From the IMG/VR virus record IMGVR_UViG_3300045988_123080: DNA of 64,000 nt. One strand, written 5' to 3'. The notes beneath the pieces are model-generated. The model made no database searches. It saw only the letters and a list, made by a program, of their open reading frames with translations, and had not been told where the DNA came from. The DNA comes from a virus. Positions 17,802 to 23,838 of the stretch are shown here, piece by piece (the stretch's first letter is position 1; the number at the start of each line of letters is the position of its first letter). The position numbers and the translations under genes are program-made.

Positions 17802-17870
17802 AATAGACATTTTATAAAGAATTGGAAATAAATAAATAACGATAATACGTTAAGCAGAGGGAGAAAAACG

Positions 17871-20081
17871 ATGAGAACTTTGCTTCTTTTCCGTGGAGCA
17901 CCCGGATGCGGGAAGTCCACCTATATTAAAGAGCATGATCTGGAAAAGTATACGCTTAGTGCCGATACGATTCGCCTTATGTGTCAGGGTGGTCAGGAAA
18001 CCCCGGCTGGCACAATGGAGATCTCTCTCCAGAACGATGGTGTTGTCTGGGATATGCTCTTTAAACTGTTGGAGGTTCGGATGTCTCACGGTGAATTTAC
18101 CGTGATTGATGCAACGAACTCTAAAACTGTCGAAATCAATCGCTATAAGAATCTTGCCAAGCAGTACAGGTACAGAATGTACATCATCGACATGACTGAT
18201 TTGCCGATTAGCGAGTGTAAACGGCGTAATGCGCTTCGCACTCCTCTGAAGAGAGTCCCGGATGCTGCCATTGATAAAATGTATGCACGATTCGCAACGC
18301 AGAAGATTCCGTCTGGTGTGACTGTACTCTCGTCAGATGTAAATGTCCTTGAGAAATTGAACTATGTTCCGCAGGACTTTAACAACTGGAGCAAAATTCA
18401 TATCATCGGTGATGTGCATGGGTGTTACAGTTGCTTGAAAGAGTATCTTGGCGACCTGAAGGATGATGAACTGTATATTTTTGTTGGCGATTATCTGGAT
18501 CGTGGAATTGAAAATGTAGAGATGTTCAAGTTCCTTTGTGATGTTGTAGACAATAATCGGAAGAATGTGATTTTCCTTGAAGGAAATCATGAACATTGGC
18601 TAAACAAGTGGGGGCACGATGAGCCTGTTCAGAGCGAGGAGTTCGCAAACTACACTCGTCCGCAGCTTTTCAAAGCAGGGATTGACCATAATACGGCTCG
18701 TAAGGTTTATTCGAGAGTAGGACAGTGCTCCTATTTTGATTACGACGGGAAAAGATACTTCGTTAGCCATGGTGGTTTGAGTTATTTGCCTGAATTTCTA
18801 CCATTCGTGTCTACTGACCAGATGATTAAAGGTGTAGGTCGCTATCCTGATATGCTAACCGTGGCTGAGTCTTGGGAAAAATCGATGCCGGATAGCTACA
18901 TTCAGATCTTCGGTCATCGAAATGTGCAGGATGTTCCTATTGATATGGGGCATCGGTGCTACAACCTCGAAGGAAAAATCGAGTTTGGTGGATATCTCCG
19001 TTGCGTGGAACTTGAACATGGTCAGTCAATCAAATGTGTAGAAACAAAGAATGATGTGTTCCGAAAAGAGGAGCCAAAGACTGAAACTGCCGTTGAAATG
19101 AAAACTGAGTTCGATAACGCAGAACTTGTCAGTAAGATGCGTCAAAGCAAATATGTGTTTGAGAAGCGATTCGGAGATATTTCTTCTTTCAACTTTTCTC
19201 GTGAAGCATTTTATAAGAAGCATTGGGATGAGGTTTCTACCAAAGCAAGGGGATTGTTCATTAACACAAAGACGAATAAGATTGTAGCTCGAAGCTATGA
19301 TAAGTTCTTTGCGGTCGATGAGCGGAATGAAACGAGAATTGGAAACCTACAGAACACTTTGAAGTTCCCGGTGACTGCATATCTGAAGGAAAACGGATTT
19401 CTTGGCATTGTCTCGTATGATGCAGAAAAGGATGGTATGTTCATTGCAAGTAAATCCACTCCTGAAGGGCCTTTTGCAGATATGTTCCGAAAGATTCTCA
19501 TGGATACGACCTCTGATGAAGACCGTAAGAATCTGAAGGAAGTTGCAAAAGAGAATGGCTCCATCATTTTTGAAGTGATTGATCCTGTGAATGATGCTCA
19601 TATCATCGAATATAAGAAACCGCACATTGTTTTGCTGGATATTGTTGCGAATGATATGAACTTTAGTGTGATGGATTACGATGATCTGAAGCGTGTTGCT
19701 GAAAAGTGTCATTTGCAGATTAAGGAGAAGGTTAAGACTTTTGAGAACTGGAGTGAATTCTATTCTTGGTACGAGGAAGTCATGAACGAGAACTATCTGC
19801 ATCATGGCTTTGAACACGTTGAAGGCTTTGTTTTGCGAGACAGCAACAATTTCATGTTTAAGATGAAGCTTCCTTATTATAAGCACTGGAAGTTCTTGCG
19901 TGGTGTTATGCAGAGCGTTCAGAAGCGTGGCTATTATGAAAATACTGCAAAGTTGTTTACTGCTGAAGATAATTTATTCTATGGTTGGATGCGTGAACAA
20001 CGAGAGAAAGACAAAGAGTCTTTCTGCAAGAAGGGTATTATTCAGTTACGGAACGAATTCTATGAGAATCAGCACGAATAA
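17871..20081 (+). CDS. pnkp: polynucleotide kinase-phosphatase-ligase (Pnkp-like RNA repair enzyme)
   Basis: Walker A GAPGCGKST kinase; calcineurin-type phosphoesterase GDVHGC / GDYLDRG / GNHEHW; C-terminal nucleotidyltransferase-like KENGFLG; same order as Clostridium thermocellum Pnkp. Confidence 0.75.
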   Translation: MRTLLLFRGAPGCGKSTYIKEHDLEKYTLSADTIRLMCQGGQETPAGTMEISLQNDGVVWDMLFKLLEVRMSHGEFTVIDATNSKTVEINRYKNLAKQYRYRMYIIDMTDLPISECKRRNALRTPLKRVPDAAIDKMYARFATQKIPSGVTVLSSDVNVLEKLNYVPQDFNNWSKIHIIGDVHGCYSCLKEYLGDLKDDELYIFVGDYLDRGIENVEMFKFLCDVVDNNRKNVIFLEGNHEHWLNKWGHDEPVQSEEFANYTRPQLFKAGIDHNTARKVYSRVGQCSYFDYDGKRYFVSHGGLSYLPEFLPFVSTDQMIKGVGRYPDMLTVAESWEKSMPDSYIQIFGHRNVQDVPIDMGHRCYNLEGKIEFGGYLRCVELEHGQSIKCVETKNDVFRKEEPKTETAVEMKTEFDNAELVSKMRQSKYVFEKRFGDISSFNFSREAFYKKHWDEVSTKARGLFINTKTNKIVARSYDKFFAVDERNETRIGNLQNTLKFPVTAYLKENGFLGIVSYDAEKDGMFIASKSTPEGPFADMFRKILMDTTSDEDRKNLKEVAKENGSIIFEVIDPVNDAHIIEYKKPHIVLLDIVANDMNFSVMDYDDLKRVAEKCHLQIKEKVKTFENWSEFYSWYEEVMNENYLHHGFEHVEGFVLRDSNNFMFKMKLPYYKHWKFLRGVMQSVQKRGYYENTAKLFTAEDNLFYGWMREQREKDKESFCKKGIIQLRNEFYENQHE

Positions 20082-20150: not shown

Positions 20151-20240
20151 GCCCAAGTGATGGAATGAGGTAGACATGAAGCTCCCAAACAGCTTTGCGT
20201 GAGATATCGCGTGCGGTTTCGAATACCGCCTTGGGCACCA
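20151..20240 (+). tRNA. class II tRNA, probable tRNA-Leu(CAA), unusual C33
   Basis: 7-bp acceptor gcccaag/cttgggc + ACCA; T-arm gcggtTTCGAATaccgc; anticodon arm aagct-cccaaac-agctt; long variable arm. Confidence 0.5.
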
Positions 20241-20280
20241 GAGTCCGAATATTCACCTATTAAATACTGGAGGCAAGTTC

Positions 20281-20478
20281 ATGAAAAGAATTGAAAAATT
20301 TTCAAAAGAAGAGATCGAGCAGATTTTTAAAGAGAGCAACAACTGGGCTACTGTGGCTGAGAAACTTGGTTACAGCAAATTCGGAGGAAGCTCTAGGGAT
20401 GTAATCCAAACATATGCAGACGAAAATAATATTGACACTTCTCATTTTACGGGACAAAGAATAATTCCAAAAGAATGA
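20281..20478 (+). CDS. small hypothetical protein, possible HTH/NUMOD-like DNA-binding
   Basis: 65 aa, WATVAEKLGYS segment; sits between tRNA genes. Confidence 0.35.
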   Translation: MKRIEKFSKEEIEQIFKESNNWATVAEKLGYSKFGGSSRDVIQTYADENNIDTSHFTGQRIIPKE

Positions 20479-20499
20479 AGCTGTATTTTATACAGCTTC
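20477..20499 (+). other. 9-bp stem hairpin (processing/terminator-like) before tRNA-Leu
   Basis: gaagctgta-tttta-tacagcttc; no strong T tract. Confidence 0.3.
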
Positions 20500-20506
20500 T
20501 GTATAT

Positions 20507-20594
20507 GCCGCAGTGATGGAGTGACATACATTTCCCGCTTAAACCGGGACGCCTGAAACACGGATCGTGGGTTTGAATCCCACCTGCGGCACCA
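20507..20594 (+). tRNA. tRNA-Leu(TAA), class II
   Basis: acceptor gccgcag/ctgcggc + ACCA; anticodon arm tcccg-cttaaac-cggga; T-arm gtgggTTTGAATcccac. Confidence 0.7.
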
Positions 20595-20598
20595 TATC

Positions 20599-20671
20599 CA
20601 GAATGTAGTGTAATGGCAGCACGCTGCGTTTGGGACGCAGAAGAGCGATTCGAATTCGACATTTTGGACCA
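20599..20671 (+). tRNA. tRNA-Pro(TGG)-like, imperfect D and T stems
   Basis: acceptor ccagaat/attttgg (one GU) + ACCA; anticodon arm ctgcg-tttggga-cgcag; T-loop TTCGAAT but only 3-bp T-stem. Confidence 0.4.
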
Positions 20672-20767
20672 GTGGAGTATTCCACTTGCTTTTCATGAAT
20701 ACCTTCCTATTATTCTTGGCTCTCCAAAAAAACGGAGCAGTAGGACGCAGCAAGCCAAGTTACATAA

Positions 20768-20857
20768 TGAGGGTTCGCCAAGTGGTAAATGGCATCTGGC
20801 TTTGACCCAGACAGCGTGCTTTATAGCCGATCGTCGGTTCGATCCCGACACCCTCAA
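20768..20857 (+). tRNA. tRNA-Gln(TTG) with ~16-nt insertion in variable region
   Basis: acceptor tgagggt/accctca; Gln-like D-arm gccaagtggtaaatggc; anticodon arm tctgg-ctttgac-ccaga; 21-nt variable region; T-arm gtcggTTCGATCccgac; no encoded CCA. Confidence 0.55.
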
Positions 20858-20862
20858 TTTAT

Positions 20863-20951
20863 GGACACGTGATGGAATCGCAGACATGAAAGATTTAGGC
20901 TCTTTTGCCGTTAACAACGGTGTGCCCGTTCAAATCGGGTCGTGTCCACCA
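20863..20951 (+). tRNA. tRNA-Leu(TAG), class II
   Basis: acceptor ggacacg/cgtgtcc + ACCA; anticodon arm aaaga-tttaggc-tcttt; variable hairpin ccgtt-aaca-aacgg; T-arm gcccgTTCAAATcgggt. Confidence 0.7.
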
Positions 20952-21054
20952 TTATCAACTTATGGTTGCGTACCGTTTGTTGATCTCCTTTGACCACTAT
21001 TATTCCCGGCTCGCCAGTGATGGTGCAGTAGTGCTTTGTAAGTCGGGTTTTCAT

Positions 21055-21129
21055 GCAGCGGTCGTACAACGGCTAGTACATCAGCCTTCCAAGCTGAGGA
21101 CGAGGTTTCGATTACCTTTCGCTGCACCA
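21055..21129 (+). tRNA. tRNA-Gly(TCC) (A73 discriminator)
   Basis: acceptor gcagcgg/tcgctgc + ACCA; D-arm gtac-aacggcta-gtac; anticodon arm tcagc-cttccaa-gctga; T-arm gaggtTTCGATTacctt. Confidence 0.6.
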
Positions 21130-21310
21130 GTCTCGTACGGGTAGGATCTTTAGCGGTTAGATCCGGCCGCGCCTGTGCGAGATACCACCCCGAAAGGGGT
21201 TAACGAAATTATCCATGTACGTTATTCTCGGCTCGCTCGGAAGAGTGCAGCGTGCCTTTGTAAGCCGAGTATCCCAGCCTAGTAATGTCAGTTGCTAGGT
21301 TGGTTCTTAT

Positions 21311-21386
21311 GCGACTGTAGTTCAATTGGCAGAGCGTCAGATTTCCAATCTGAATGTTGCGGGATCATACCCCGTCAGTCGCTCCA
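21311..21386 (+). tRNA. tRNA-Gly(TCC) (U73, C2:G71, G3:C70), atypical T-loop
   Basis: acceptor gcgactg/cagtcgc + TCCA; D-arm gttc-aattggca-gagc; anticodon arm tcaga-tttccaa-tctga; T-loop atcatac non-canonical. Confidence 0.55.
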
Positions 21387-21517
21387 CACGCAGCCCCTTA
21401 CGCTGCACCGGTTACTCAGAGCCGAAAGAAACCTATATGTTACGACATGGTTGCCAAGAGTGATCATATTGGAACGCGACGTAGCTTGGATAGTGAGAAT
21501 TAAATTCTGAGGTATAC

Positions 21518-21585
21518 GGCTGGATAGCTTAATGGTAAAAGCGCTCGGAAACACCGAGAGATAAGGTTCGATTCCTTCACTGGCA
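21518..21585 (+). ncRNA. tRNA-like element / probable pseudo-tRNA
   Basis: canonical D-arm tagcttaatggtaaaagc and T-arm taaggTTCGATTccttc but no complementary acceptor stem and a 5-nt anticodon loop (ctcgg-aaaca-ccgag). Confidence 0.35.
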
Positions 21586-21613
21586 TCGCGCCGATGAAAG
21601 TCGGCGTTTGCAT

Positions 21614-21689
21614 GGAATAGTAGCTCAGTTGGTTAGAGCCGACAACTTATAATTGTCAGACGCGAGTTCAAATCTCGACTATTCCACCA
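21614..21689 (+). tRNA. tRNA-Ile(TAT) (or AUA-reading tRNA)
   Basis: acceptor ggaatag/ctattcc + ACCA; D-arm gctc-agttggtta-gagc; anticodon arm gacaa-cttataa-ttgtc; T-loop TTCAAAT. Confidence 0.65.
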
Positions 21690-21813: not shown

Positions 21814-21830
21814 GAAAAGGAGGTGGTTTG

Positions 21831-23295
21831 GTGAAACATTATGGAAGTATTTGCGAGATTGATGGTTCTAAGATTGAACCTGTCTCGTGTATCACTGGTG
21901 GTTCACCTTGTTAGCCAAGATCTTTCTATTGCCGGTAAGCGGGCAGGTTTGGCTGGAGAACGGTCTGGTCTATTTATGGAAATGATTCGTGTGATAAAAG
22001 AAATGAGGGATACCACCAATGGAGAATATCCAAAATTTGCAATCTGGGAAAATGTTAGAGGAGCACTCTCCTCAAACAACGGAGAAGACTTCCGATGTGT
22101 CTTGGAAGAATTTGCACACATCGTCGAAGCAGACGCTACAATTCCTAAACCTTCGGAAAAAGGTGGAAAATGGTCTAAATCCGGCGCAATTTCCGGTAAT
22201 GGATGGTCTTTGGCATGGAGACTCTTCGATGCTCAATACTGGGGAGTGCCCCAACGTCGTCAAAGAATCGCGCTTGTCATGGATTTTGGAGGACAACGTG
22301 CCGCAAAGATATTATTTGAGCGCACGGGCGTGCCAGGGAATTCTGACGAGAGCATCCCGACGTGGCAAGGTGCTGCCAGAATTGCTGAAAAATGCATTGT
22401 TGGAAATGATCGAGTGGTGGGAGAAAAAAGCTTTTGTATCGTCGGAAACATGATTGACAGAGAAACCAACATGAATGGGACTGGTGTAAAAGAAGATACT
22501 GCTTTCACTATAAACACTATTGACCGTAATGCTGTTGCCTACACTTTAAAGATTCGTTCAGGATGCGAAGGTGGTGGCAAAGGCGCACTGGTACAAATCG
22601 AGAAGAGCGCAACGCTTTCTACATTGCAAGATCAAACGTTAATTTGCTTGGCAGACAACACCTCTTTACATAATTCAAAACAAAAGATTTCGCCGGTGGT
22701 GTTTGAGAGTCACAGTCAGGATGCTCGATACACTCAACAGGGCGACACAAGTCCGGCTTGTACGGCTCAATGGGGGACTGGTGGCAATAATATGCCGCTT
22801 GTTGCTGAAAAGAAAACCTTTGCAATGCAACGCATTGGTGAATACAAGGAAAGTGAACAAGCTAGTACGATGAAATCTCGTGACTACAAGGATGCTACTG
22901 ACTTGATTGCAGAGAAGGAAACGAAGAATCTGCAATGGATTGTTCGTCGCCTGACTCCTGTCGAGTGTGAACGACTTCAAGGGTTCCCTGATGGATGGAC
23001 TGATATTGGCGAGTGGGTTGATGAGAATGGTAAAAAGCACAAACCAGCTGATTCTCCTCAGTACAAGGCACTCGGTAATTCAATCGCTTTGCCTCAGTGG
23101 TATTGGATTTTCCAGAAAATGAAGCCGTATATCGGTGAAAATCCTACGCTTGGCAGTCTTTTCGATGGGATTGGTGGCTTTCCGCTTGTCTTTGAAAGTA
23201 CGTATGGTGATGGTACTGCTATCTGGGGATCTGAAATCGAACCGTTCTGCGTTGCAGTAACTAAGAAGCATTTTCCAGAAAAGCAAGGAGGATAA
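21831..23295 (+). pseudogene. C5 cytosine DNA methyltransferase, circularly permuted motif order, frame broken at catalytic PCQ motif
   Basis: GTG 21831 after AAGGAGG gives ...ICEIDGSKIEPVSCITGGSPC then TAG; +1 frame continues QDLSIAGKRAGL..ERSGLF (IV-V), ENV (VI), QRR (VIII), RLTPVECERLQGFPDGW and GNS (IX-X), then FDGIGGF...SEIEPF (I-II) at the C-terminus. Confidence 0.7.
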
Positions 23296-23296
23296 T

Positions 23297-23838
23297 TTGC
23301 CAGAAAACAAAGGATATTTAACAGCTGACCGATCTGCGGCAGGCGATGAGCGATACACACCGGTTTACGCGGTTATTCCATTGCTTGAATTTGCCCCCCG
23401 TCGAGTGAAGCAGTGATTTGGTGTCCGTTTGATAAAGAGTGGTCTGCCTTTGTGAAGGTGTTCAGAGATGCTGGATATAAAGTAGAATGTAGCCACATTG
23501 ATAACGGGCAAGATTTCTTTACATATGAACCAGAAAATTGGGATGTTATAATTTCAAATCCTCCTTTTAGCAAGAAGGATGAAGTATTACGTAGAGCCTA
23601 TGAACTCGGAAAGCCGTTTGCTCTACTGCTTCCTGCAAATAGTATTCAGGGTAAGACGCGATTTGATATTTTCAAAAATGACGTACAGATGCTATGTTTT
23701 GATTCTCGAATAGGATTCATGGACCCTAAACACGCAGACAGCCCTGTCGAGGGAGTGTCTTTTGGAAGTGCATACTTCTGTAGAAATTTTCTTCCCAGTA
23801 AGTTAGAGTTACGAAAACTTGATAAGAAAATCTCATAA
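23297..23838 (+). pseudogene. phage Dam-like N6-adenine DNA methyltransferase (NPPF motif), frameshifted in C6 run
   Basis: frame A LPENKGYLTADRSAAGDERYTPVYAVIPLLEFAP ends TGA 23414-23416; frame B from 23413 ...IWCPFDKEW...DVIISNPPFS...LLLPANS; join point at cccccc 23393-23398. Confidence 0.55.

Follow-up and report, generated by a model that had tools for sequence, protein, structure and literature searches.

The IMG/VR virus record IMGVR_UViG_3300045988_123080 supplied the window, the whole stretch of 64,000 nucleotides (nt) that was analysed, and within it a DNA methyltransferase (MTase) gene at 21831 to 23295 that is interrupted directly after the codon for its catalytic cysteine. The gene and all of its features described here lie on the plus strand. 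A Shine-Dalgarno (SD) sequence, GGAGG (21819..21823; GGAGGTGAT, GGGGTGAT or AGGTGAT in relatives), stands 7 nt 5' of a GTG start at 21831 and serves a short open reading frame (ORF), the N-fragment, which runs in frame 0 for 27 codons (21831..21911, VKHYGSICEIDGSKIEPVSCITGGSPC), encodes motif III and motif IV through the catalytic Pro-Cys, and ends in GGSPC, with the Cys codon TGT at 21909-11. There follow TAG (21912-14) and one spacer base, C in the window (21915), and after this 4-nt interruption (21912..21915) the protein resumes in the +1 frame as a large fragment (21916..23295) of 459 codons and a TAA at 23293-95, which opens with CAA at 21916 (QDLSIAGKRAGLAGERSGLF) and begins with the catalytic loop QDLSIAGKR. 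Any net +1 frame change must fall at 21912..21915. The 18-mer GGTGGTTCACCTTGTTAG has a single copy within the window. The ORF reported by gene callers is another one, of 484 residues from an ATG at 21841 in the +1 frame, the N-terminal 25 residues of which are out of frame.

Based on its motifs and alignments, the locus is predicted to encode a DNA (cytosine-5) methyltransferase (C5-MTase) with a natural circular permutation, its new N-terminus lying between motifs II and III. Motifs I (FxGxG), IV (PC), VI (ENV), VIII (QxRxR), IX and X (GNS) are all there, not in the canonical I-to-X order within a single unbroken ORF but in the order (III)-IV-X-I-II, with TAG and 1 nt after the catalytic Cys. 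Within the large fragment, motif VI (ENV, 22033-71) and motif VIII (QRR, 22240-78) are followed by a long, modular target-recognition region (TRD, ~22498-22914), motif IX (22936-23001) and motif X (GNS, 23062-23097), and the C-terminal part holds motif I (LFDGIGGF, 23149-87) and motif II (SEIEPF..KKHF, 23221-74). With the 4 nt removed, the protein matched Pfam PF00145 in its native order (E=1.9e-37), and moving the last 51 residues to the front gave E=6.3e-41, colinear over profile positions 4-131. The same de-permuted and repaired protein was colinear with M.HhaI over 16-136, 146-169 and 271-307, was gapless at PC|Q, and its join KKHFPE..|VKHYGSI aligned to NFGEKPE|GDI of M.HhaI. The original prediction, made from the letters of the window, was borne out by these analyses and by a re-reading of the coordinates: the GTG with its SD, the TAG and the resumption in the +1 frame are as it described, the break is of exactly 4 nt between Pro-Cys and Gln, and the permutation of IV-X and then I-II stands with motif III added at its head. 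Motifs I and II, which it allowed might sit in a separate downstream ORF of relatives, proved to be in the same ORF as IV-X. An AlphaFold2 model of the +1 product, built from a shallow alignment, had a predicted local distance difference test score of 32 and was unusable.

The topology is that of class B permutants such as cp62M.MpeI, in which the chain begins between motifs II and III and ends after II, and not that of type H, the M.BssHII group. Type H enzymes begin within the variable region, with motifs IX-X ahead of I-VIII, and in a 2018 survey of REBASE natural C5-MTase permutants were found only in this region (PMC5944983). M.BssHII, M.Alw26I, M2.Eco31I, M.Esp3I and M2.BsaI share the C5-MTase fold and a permuted motif order with the window gene but differ from it in the position of the N-terminus, and no conserved frame break at motif IV has been reported for them. 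The arrangement that was absent from that survey is also the most active design of protein engineers: of all permutants tested, class B cp62M.MpeI and cp58M.SssI were the most active, engineered permutants of this topology being fully active and their split forms able to complement (PMC5944983). Some relatives of the window gene even have the further split of those enzymes (TAA, SD and TTG); the engineered proteins, however, are laboratory constructs with no frame break, whereas the window gene is natural and broken. Literature searches of an incomplete collection found no description of the TAG+1 break or of a natural II/III permutation.

The long modular TRD suggests that the enzyme would be multispecific, and TRD modules have been gained and lost among relatives that carry the broken allele. 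The C5-MTases of Bacillus phages SPR, phi3T and rho11s are multispecific, and they resemble the window gene in being phage-borne orphan C5-MTases with several tandem TRD-like modules that vary from one relative to another; for the window gene, by contrast, multispecificity is read only from the modular sequence.

The interruption is far from peculiar to the window, as TGT-TAG-N-CAR occurs at the PC|Q position in more than 260 independent contigs of IMG/VR and metagenomes. A scan with exact flanks returned 54 contigs (TAGC in 49, TAGA in 3, TAGT in 2), a degenerate scan that permitted every synonymous codon for Gly-Gly-Ser-Pro-Cys returned more than 119 contigs and 143 loci in all, and the metagenome collection added at least 120 further contigs. 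The N-fragment is always 27 codons long, and starts with GTG at 118/118 metagenome sites, while the peptides it encodes are diverse (55 distinct in IMG/VR and 39 in metagenomes, e.g., VKHLGDITKINGAEIEPVWCITGGSPC and VEHLGDITKLNGYELPAVDVVIGGSPC). In the species-genome collection the site was present in only two metagenome-assembled genomes (Clostridia, Bacillota). All 120 of the protein homologues listed, down to ~80% identity, share the break, their called ORFs opening out of frame as MEVFARL...VVHLVSQDLS; they range from 454 to 641 residues, with varied TRD module content. A sequencing artefact, one of the readings first offered, and likewise an assembly error or a mutation confined to one genome, had nothing in favour beyond being possible a priori; the identical interruption in more than 260 independently assembled contigs, which come from many samples and many assemblers, refutes them, and we assign them practically no chance.

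Whether homologs in related phages are contiguous, a check proposed at the outset, had a divided answer: among 78 related IMG/VR loci, on phage contigs of up to ~139 kb, 33 have the break and the other 45 carry a contiguous allele (...GGAGGCAGTCCATGCCAAGAT...). In a neighbour-joining tree of the catalytic domain, for which the sample was biased toward broken loci, the broken state extended across 39 lineages (92% identity), which made up most of the tree, with a few unbroken alleles nested within. The start of the unbroken allele (allele B; loci L007 and L021-L052), ~85 nt before the start of the match, is likely to be CTG, since ATG, GTG and TTG starts are all lacking, the frame is closed by a TGA two codons upstream, and an SD stands 8 nt before the CTG; an out-of-frame ATG is present 7 nt upstream. 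A nucleotide search of isolate phages produced no close relative, and the closest cultured relatives by protein search were the Faecalibacterium phages FP_Toutatis and Lelie (~56% identity), based on which the hosts are probably Faecalibacterium/Oscillospiraceae-like Clostridia. The Toutatis and Lelie methylases are permuted, start with ATG and have PCQ intact, yet are frameshifted at a poly-G tract. A practical consequence is that gene callers mis-annotate broken alleles as proteins of 480-550 residues with a spurious N-terminus and no catalytic cysteine, and methylome and anti-restriction predictions are therefore wrong at the methylase locus for abundant gut phages of the Faecalibacterium/Oscillospiraceae type.

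The sequence at the break is under unusual constraint. Among the matches listed from IMG/VR and metagenomes the stop is always TAG, and TAA or TGA in its place was found in 0 contigs in IMG/VR (degenerate pattern) and 0 in metagenomes (exact-flank pattern). The base after TAG was A in 83, C in 34, T in 3 and G in 0 of the 120 metagenome matches listed, and G was likewise absent among the 143 IMG/VR loci listed, in all of which the Cys codon was TGT, though the pattern permitted TGC. The codons that lead into the stop form a conserved 15-nt element, GGT GGT TCA CCT TGT (21897..21911), comprising an SD-like GGUGGU, an anti-SD-like UCACCU and the TGT Cys codon. Third-position entropy over these codons is 0.56, 0.65, 0.35, 0.57 and 0.0 bits, against 1.2-1.9 elsewhere in the gene, and the drop in synonymous entropy is limited to the 5 codons before TAG, entropy being high again directly 3' of the site. 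A rare variant of GGUGGU is GGAGGC, a better SD. Divergent lineages agree around the break over a block of only ~20 nt, within DNA that is otherwise 30-40% diverged, which argues against spread by gene conversion, for which the block is too short.

The insert is always 4 nt, and no versions with an insert of 0-3 nt and the same flanks were found in the methylase family, a result on which a reversible DNA switch or revertants were rejected. Nor is the site a simple-sequence contingency locus, as the insert is non-repetitive and constant in length. Homopolymer tracts switch the frame in phase-variable MTases (phasevarions), and the neighbouring MTase has such a tract, as do relatives of the window gene; the TAG+1 break, by contrast, is not a repeat tract and has no length variation. 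A downstream stimulatory RNA structure was also rejected: synonymous entropy is high just 3' of the site, and a CUUG/CAAG hairpin in the window is lost in lineages with TAGA-CAG.

Part of the constraint may derive from RNA pairing. The 3' arm of a candidate helix (GUGGUUCACC, 21898-21907) lies within the 15-nt element and is complementary to a 5' arm (GGUGAAACAU, 21830..21839) that holds an invariant G, the GTG start (21831-33) and an invariant CAT at codon 3. RNAalifold recovered the helix 21830-21839/21898-21907 unaided, pairing was present in 96.7% of cells versus 39-49% with the partner slid, and the helix was in the single-sequence minimum free energy structure of 21/30 lineages. Covariation was weak, with double changes at one pair in two lineages and a score reached by 11/500 shuffles. 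When more 5' sequence was included an alternative register appeared, in which UCACCUU pairs with the true SD, GAGGUGA, and in the window the entire N-fragment ORF forms a single hairpin that pairs the SD and start with the break region, albeit with a z-score of only -1.87. The pairing accounts for most of the synonymous constraint as well as for the invariant GTG start and CAT codon, but leaves the TGT, the TAG and the avoidance of G unaccounted for. It is a candidate for a helix that masks the start site and would be opened by the ribosome at UGU-UAG.

Purifying selection acts on both coding parts. In a set of 30 non-redundant broken lineages with <93% identity to one another, synonymous sites were saturated (proportion of synonymous differences, pS, 0.78-0.80), and the ratio of nonsynonymous to synonymous proportions (pN/pS) was 0.34 over the N-fragment (frame 0) and 0.42 over the 50 codons that follow the break. 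Read in the +1 frame the N-fragment DNA had a pN/pS of 1.36 and stops in 21/30 lineages, and 9/13 variable N-fragment sites in the window's own clade are third positions of frame 0. The +1 frame upstream of the break is thus non-coding, and the frame-specific pN/pS and third-position variation indicate that frame 0 is the one read over the 27 codons and +1 over the large part, and that selection has maintained both parts long after the break arose.

These ratios bear directly on the possibility that the gene is inactive or decaying, i.e., that a 4-nt insertion knocked out the MTase and the allele hitch-hikes, patched by recombination with intact alleles. The same phage species does harbour unbroken alleles as well, intragenic recombination is evident (in L007 a body 97% identical to that of the window is joined to an unbroken N-terminus), and secondary disruptions are more frequent in broken alleles (19/38) than in one unbroken haplotype (2/30), with nonsense codons in L133 and L134. 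Nevertheless, a gene evolving neutrally after a disabling mutation would not be expected to show pN/pS of 0.34-0.42 at a pS of ~0.8 together with nucleotide-level constraint at the site, and neutral drift would be expected to produce TAA or TGA, G, or TGC, none of which was seen in more than 260 sites. The short block of identity speaks against spread by gene conversion, half of an unbiased sample retains a fully open ORF of 450-550 codons, and most of the additional breaks are changes in homopolymer length of the sort that contingency loci undergo; the remainder are largely clean splits with their own SD, many come from one sub-lineage, and few are nonsense codons. The earlier suggestion of a pseudogenised or deliberately inactivated MTase therefore fits poorly with purifying selection on both sides, an exclusive TAG, a next base that is never G and a constant TGT. 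A variant in which the only product is non-catalytic and lacks the Cys, e.g., through a slip of tRNA-Pro on CCU-U, can draw on CC[C/U]-[C/U] being a +1 slippery motif for tRNA-Pro. Taken jointly, decay and this variant have, in our estimation, a small chance of being correct.

The further alterations in relatives are of several kinds. Poly-G tracts (G5-G11) occur at two methylase positions in loci L100, L106, L087, L232, L252, L296, L297 and L424, one after motif VI near ...PSGKGG/WGG... and one in the TRD at ...IRGGCDGGGKGALVQ, and their length, hence the frame, varies between near-identical contigs, the cultured phages Toutatis and Lelie included. In one sub-lineage (L084, L106, L111 and L129) the methylase is split between TRD modules into two ORFs by TAA, GGAGGG and a TTG start, resembling the engineered class B split. 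P0105 has an in-frame insert with an HNH/HTH domain within motif IX, and in L420 (2866-5309) three tyrosine-recombinase genes on the opposite strand cut the methylase after motif VI.

On balance, we consider it probable that the broken allele encodes a functional permuted C5-MTase whose production needs programmed recoding, net +1, at UGU-UAG-H (where H is A, C or U), the recoding step itself being what we infer. This is favoured by the conjunction of a stop read by one release factor (RF), a next base that provides a weak context, a wobble-paired codon in the ribosomal peptidyl (P) site, a 5' SD-like element and conserved coding on both sides. Recoding is the best supported of the three readings originally put forward for the site, albeit not demonstrated and with its mechanism open. 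Ribosomes would initiate at GUG 21831 and decode 27 codons, the last five being those of Gly-Gly-Ser-Pro-Cys. On reaching UGU-UAG-C (21909-21915), some would enter the +1 frame instead of terminating and go on with Gln-Asp-Leu-Ser to 23295, and the remainder would release a 27-residue peptide. The frame change would take place on the ribosome, UAG may have been chosen as a stop recognised by RF1 only and in a weak context (UAG-H is a weak termination context in E. coli), and the roles of stimulator and throttle could fall to GGUGGU, the SD-like sequence 6 nt ahead of UGU, to the anti-SD-like UCACCU, or to both.

The product would depend on the route. A simple +1 shift would give ...GGSPC-Ser-QDLS... 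(Arg in TAGA lineages; junction peptide IEPVSCITGGSPCSQDLSIAGK) and would be of the non-re-pairing type, since tRNA-Cys cannot re-pair on GUU. A 4-nt hop would give ...GGSPCQDLS..., rebuilding the canonical motif exactly (junction ...GGSPCQDLSIAGK), and read-through plus a shift would yield ...GGSPCQQDLS.... The claim that the inserted tagc destroys the active site accordingly holds for the DNA as read, but probably not for the protein made. As to purpose, low or conditional methylase expression is likely. The weak starts (GTG, or CTG where the allele is unbroken) agree with this, as do the homopolymer contingency tracts that both the adjacent gene and relatives contain, and together these features suggest that the phages keep methylase output low or switchable.

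Several points weigh against recoding. We know of no experimental product. The 15-nt constraint may serve the start-site-sequestering helix instead of a shift, and the excess of secondary disruptions in broken alleles, described above, is also on this side of the balance. A simple +1 shift adds Ser or Arg between the catalytic Cys and Gln, one residue beyond the spacing in M.HhaI, and a natural in-frame PC[S/R]QDLS protein was not found among the best 20 of 120 hits, all of which were PCQDLS with ATG starts. A 4-nt hop lacks matched take-off and landing codons for tRNA-Cys (UGU versus AGN), and matched pairing would be provided only by a speculative scheme in which a near-cognate tRNA-Gln reads UAG and re-pairs on CAR 4 nt downstream.

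The remaining objections emerge from comparison with prfB, the gene for RF2, in which the shift site is CUU UGA C. The methylase site shares with it an in-frame stop in a weak context, a net +1 change, a 5' SD-like element, strict conservation and a stop read by one RF, and is prfB-like in these respects, but it fails two defining features. The P-site codon of prfB re-pairs in the +1 frame (CUU-U), whereas the tRNA-Cys of the methylase site (anticodon GCA) cannot do so (UGU to GUU), and the SD-like element of prfB is 3 nt from the shift codon, whereas GGUGGU is 6 nt from UGU and shares its bases with the candidate helix. The two differ as well in the stop, UGA in prfB and UAG, read by RF1, in the methylase, and in context: the methylase site has no evident autoregulatory logic, lies 27 codons from the start and is linked to a helix that would sequester the ribosome-binding site. 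A second precedent is the bypassing in T4 gene 60, in which UAG also comes right after the last decoded codon, and as in short tRNA hops over stops, dropping a short untranslated stretch from the methylase restores a conserved motif (PCQDLS). Unlike in gene 60, however, the methylase gap is 4 nt only, there are no matching take-off and landing codons, and no take-off hairpin is conserved across lineages.

A more elaborate form of recoding, which we regard as unlikely, would be an undescribed UAG-specific device found widely among gut Clostridia phages, in which a near-cognate tRNA-Gln competes with RF1 for UAG and hops over UAG-N to the cognate CAR, restoring Pro-Cys-Gln exactly, and in which this hop is coupled to anti-SD-like masking of the SD and start that a paused ribosome at the site would lift; if it were true, methylase output would report RF1 activity or ribosome pausing in the infected cell. 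Should recoding in any form be confirmed, the site would join the short list of programmed frame-change signals in bacteria and phages as a new and very widespread one, specific to UAG, without a re-pairing codon and 27 codons from a GUG start. It would also make a convenient model, since the shift sits in the catalytic motif and activity can be read as DNA methylation.

The enzyme could alternatively be made as two chains with no frameshift, namely a 27-residue peptide, released at UAG, that carries the motif III-IV strands and the catalytic Cys at its C-terminus, and a large subunit (M-V-H-L-V-S-QDLS) initiated at a +1-frame GTG (21898-21900) formed by GGT|GGT, at which a ribosome that had terminated 15 nt downstream would re-initiate, the chains then assembling. 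This GTG, six codons before the Gln, is present in 27/30 lineages and is the first possible start after the +1-frame stop in several; it is missing in the other 3 (GGAGGC or GGCGGT), has no SD, and would face competition from a nearer UUG in the third frame. M.AquI (alpha/beta) and M.EcoHK31I (with a 61-residue beta peptide) are natural two-chain C5-MTases in which, as would be the case here, the catalytic apparatus is spread over two ORFs, one possibly very small; their splits, though, are near the variable region or motif IX and have ordinary starts, whereas the methylase is cut in motif IV and its large part has no canonical initiation site. To our knowledge there is no precedent for a C5-MTase split at PC|Q, and the peptide would need to supply a central beta-strand. 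Relatives of the methylase are cleanly split elsewhere, by TAA, GGAGGG and TTG, fragments 1-61 and 62-395 of M.MpeI complement one another, and naturally bisected C5-MTases have been mentioned (PMC5944983). Any stop codon would serve for termination and re-initiation, yet neither TAA nor TGA is ever seen, and two chains do not explain why the base after the stop is never G or why the Cys codon is always TGT. We consider two chains doubtful, while granting them a modest chance.

A dedicated tRNA might read UAG-N as a four-base codon, inserting one residue and restoring the frame; it would be either amber-suppressor-like, its anticodon loop expanded, or a tRNA-Gln of phage or host. Such a tRNA would agree with a stop that is strictly UAG and a fourth base that is A, C or U and not G, a pattern that can be likened to the quadruplet suppressor sufJ, which reads ACCN. 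The window phage has an array that includes tRNA-Gln(UUG) immediately upstream of the gene, but neither the window nor 32 related arrays yielded a tRNA with a CUA or four-base anticodon. In addition, many of the contigs with the broken allele are of small phages, TAG is a normal stop in related loci (6-11% of ORFs), and there is no in-frame TAG recoding in the genes of the window. We deem such a tRNA very unlikely. An odd element at 21519-21585, weakly tRNA-like (Rfam tRNA, 30 bits), has an anticodon stem closing a 5-nt loop, AAACA, which is complementary to UGUU; it does not co-occur with the broken allele, being found with both alleles and absent from many broken loci, and was rejected as a quadruplet reader. 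Reassignment of TAG to Gln (code 15) was rejected likewise, for treating TAG as sense merges no ORFs in the window, no CUA tRNA was found, and TAG is a normal stop in relatives; this check covers the replication and nucleotide-metabolism genes of the window, the late genes lying outside it. The 80 long plus-strand ORFs of the window end in TAA (45), TGA (34) and TAG (1).

The tRNA array (20151-21689) comprises eight genes: Leu-CAA, Leu-UAA, Pro-UGG, Gln-UUG, Leu-UAG, two Gly-UCC and Ile-UAU. At 90 nt the tRNA-Gln (20768-20857) has a long variable arm, unusual for Gln. Relatives have nearly the same set of anticodons but differ in mosaic fashion in the tRNA sequences themselves, with Gln tRNAs of the short as well as the long form. 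A short distance 5' of the tRNA-Gln gene and of each tRNA-Gly gene stands a repeated leader element of ~49 nt (20707-20726, 21000-21048 and 21222-21270). Each is capable of forming a hairpin, and their stems differ by compensatory changes, CCCGGCT/AGTCGGG versus TCTCGGCT/AGCCGAG. Directly upstream of the array is a gene (17832-20081) for a 749-residue protein that matches RNA ligase and polynucleotide kinase/phosphatase families, which suggests a tRNA-repair module.

The gene directly downstream of the methylase (23297-23838) encodes another DNA methyltransferase, of the amino-MTase type with NPPF as its motif, and is split into two ORFs at a run of six C (23394-23399). The run looks like a homopolymer contingency tract, since four relatives have seven C and one continuous ORF in place of the six C and split gene of the window. 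Farther along, between the helicase/exonuclease and DNA ligase genes, 42408-42480 matches the RAGATH-18 RNA motif (Rfam RF03064) with 72.5 bits, well above the gathering score.

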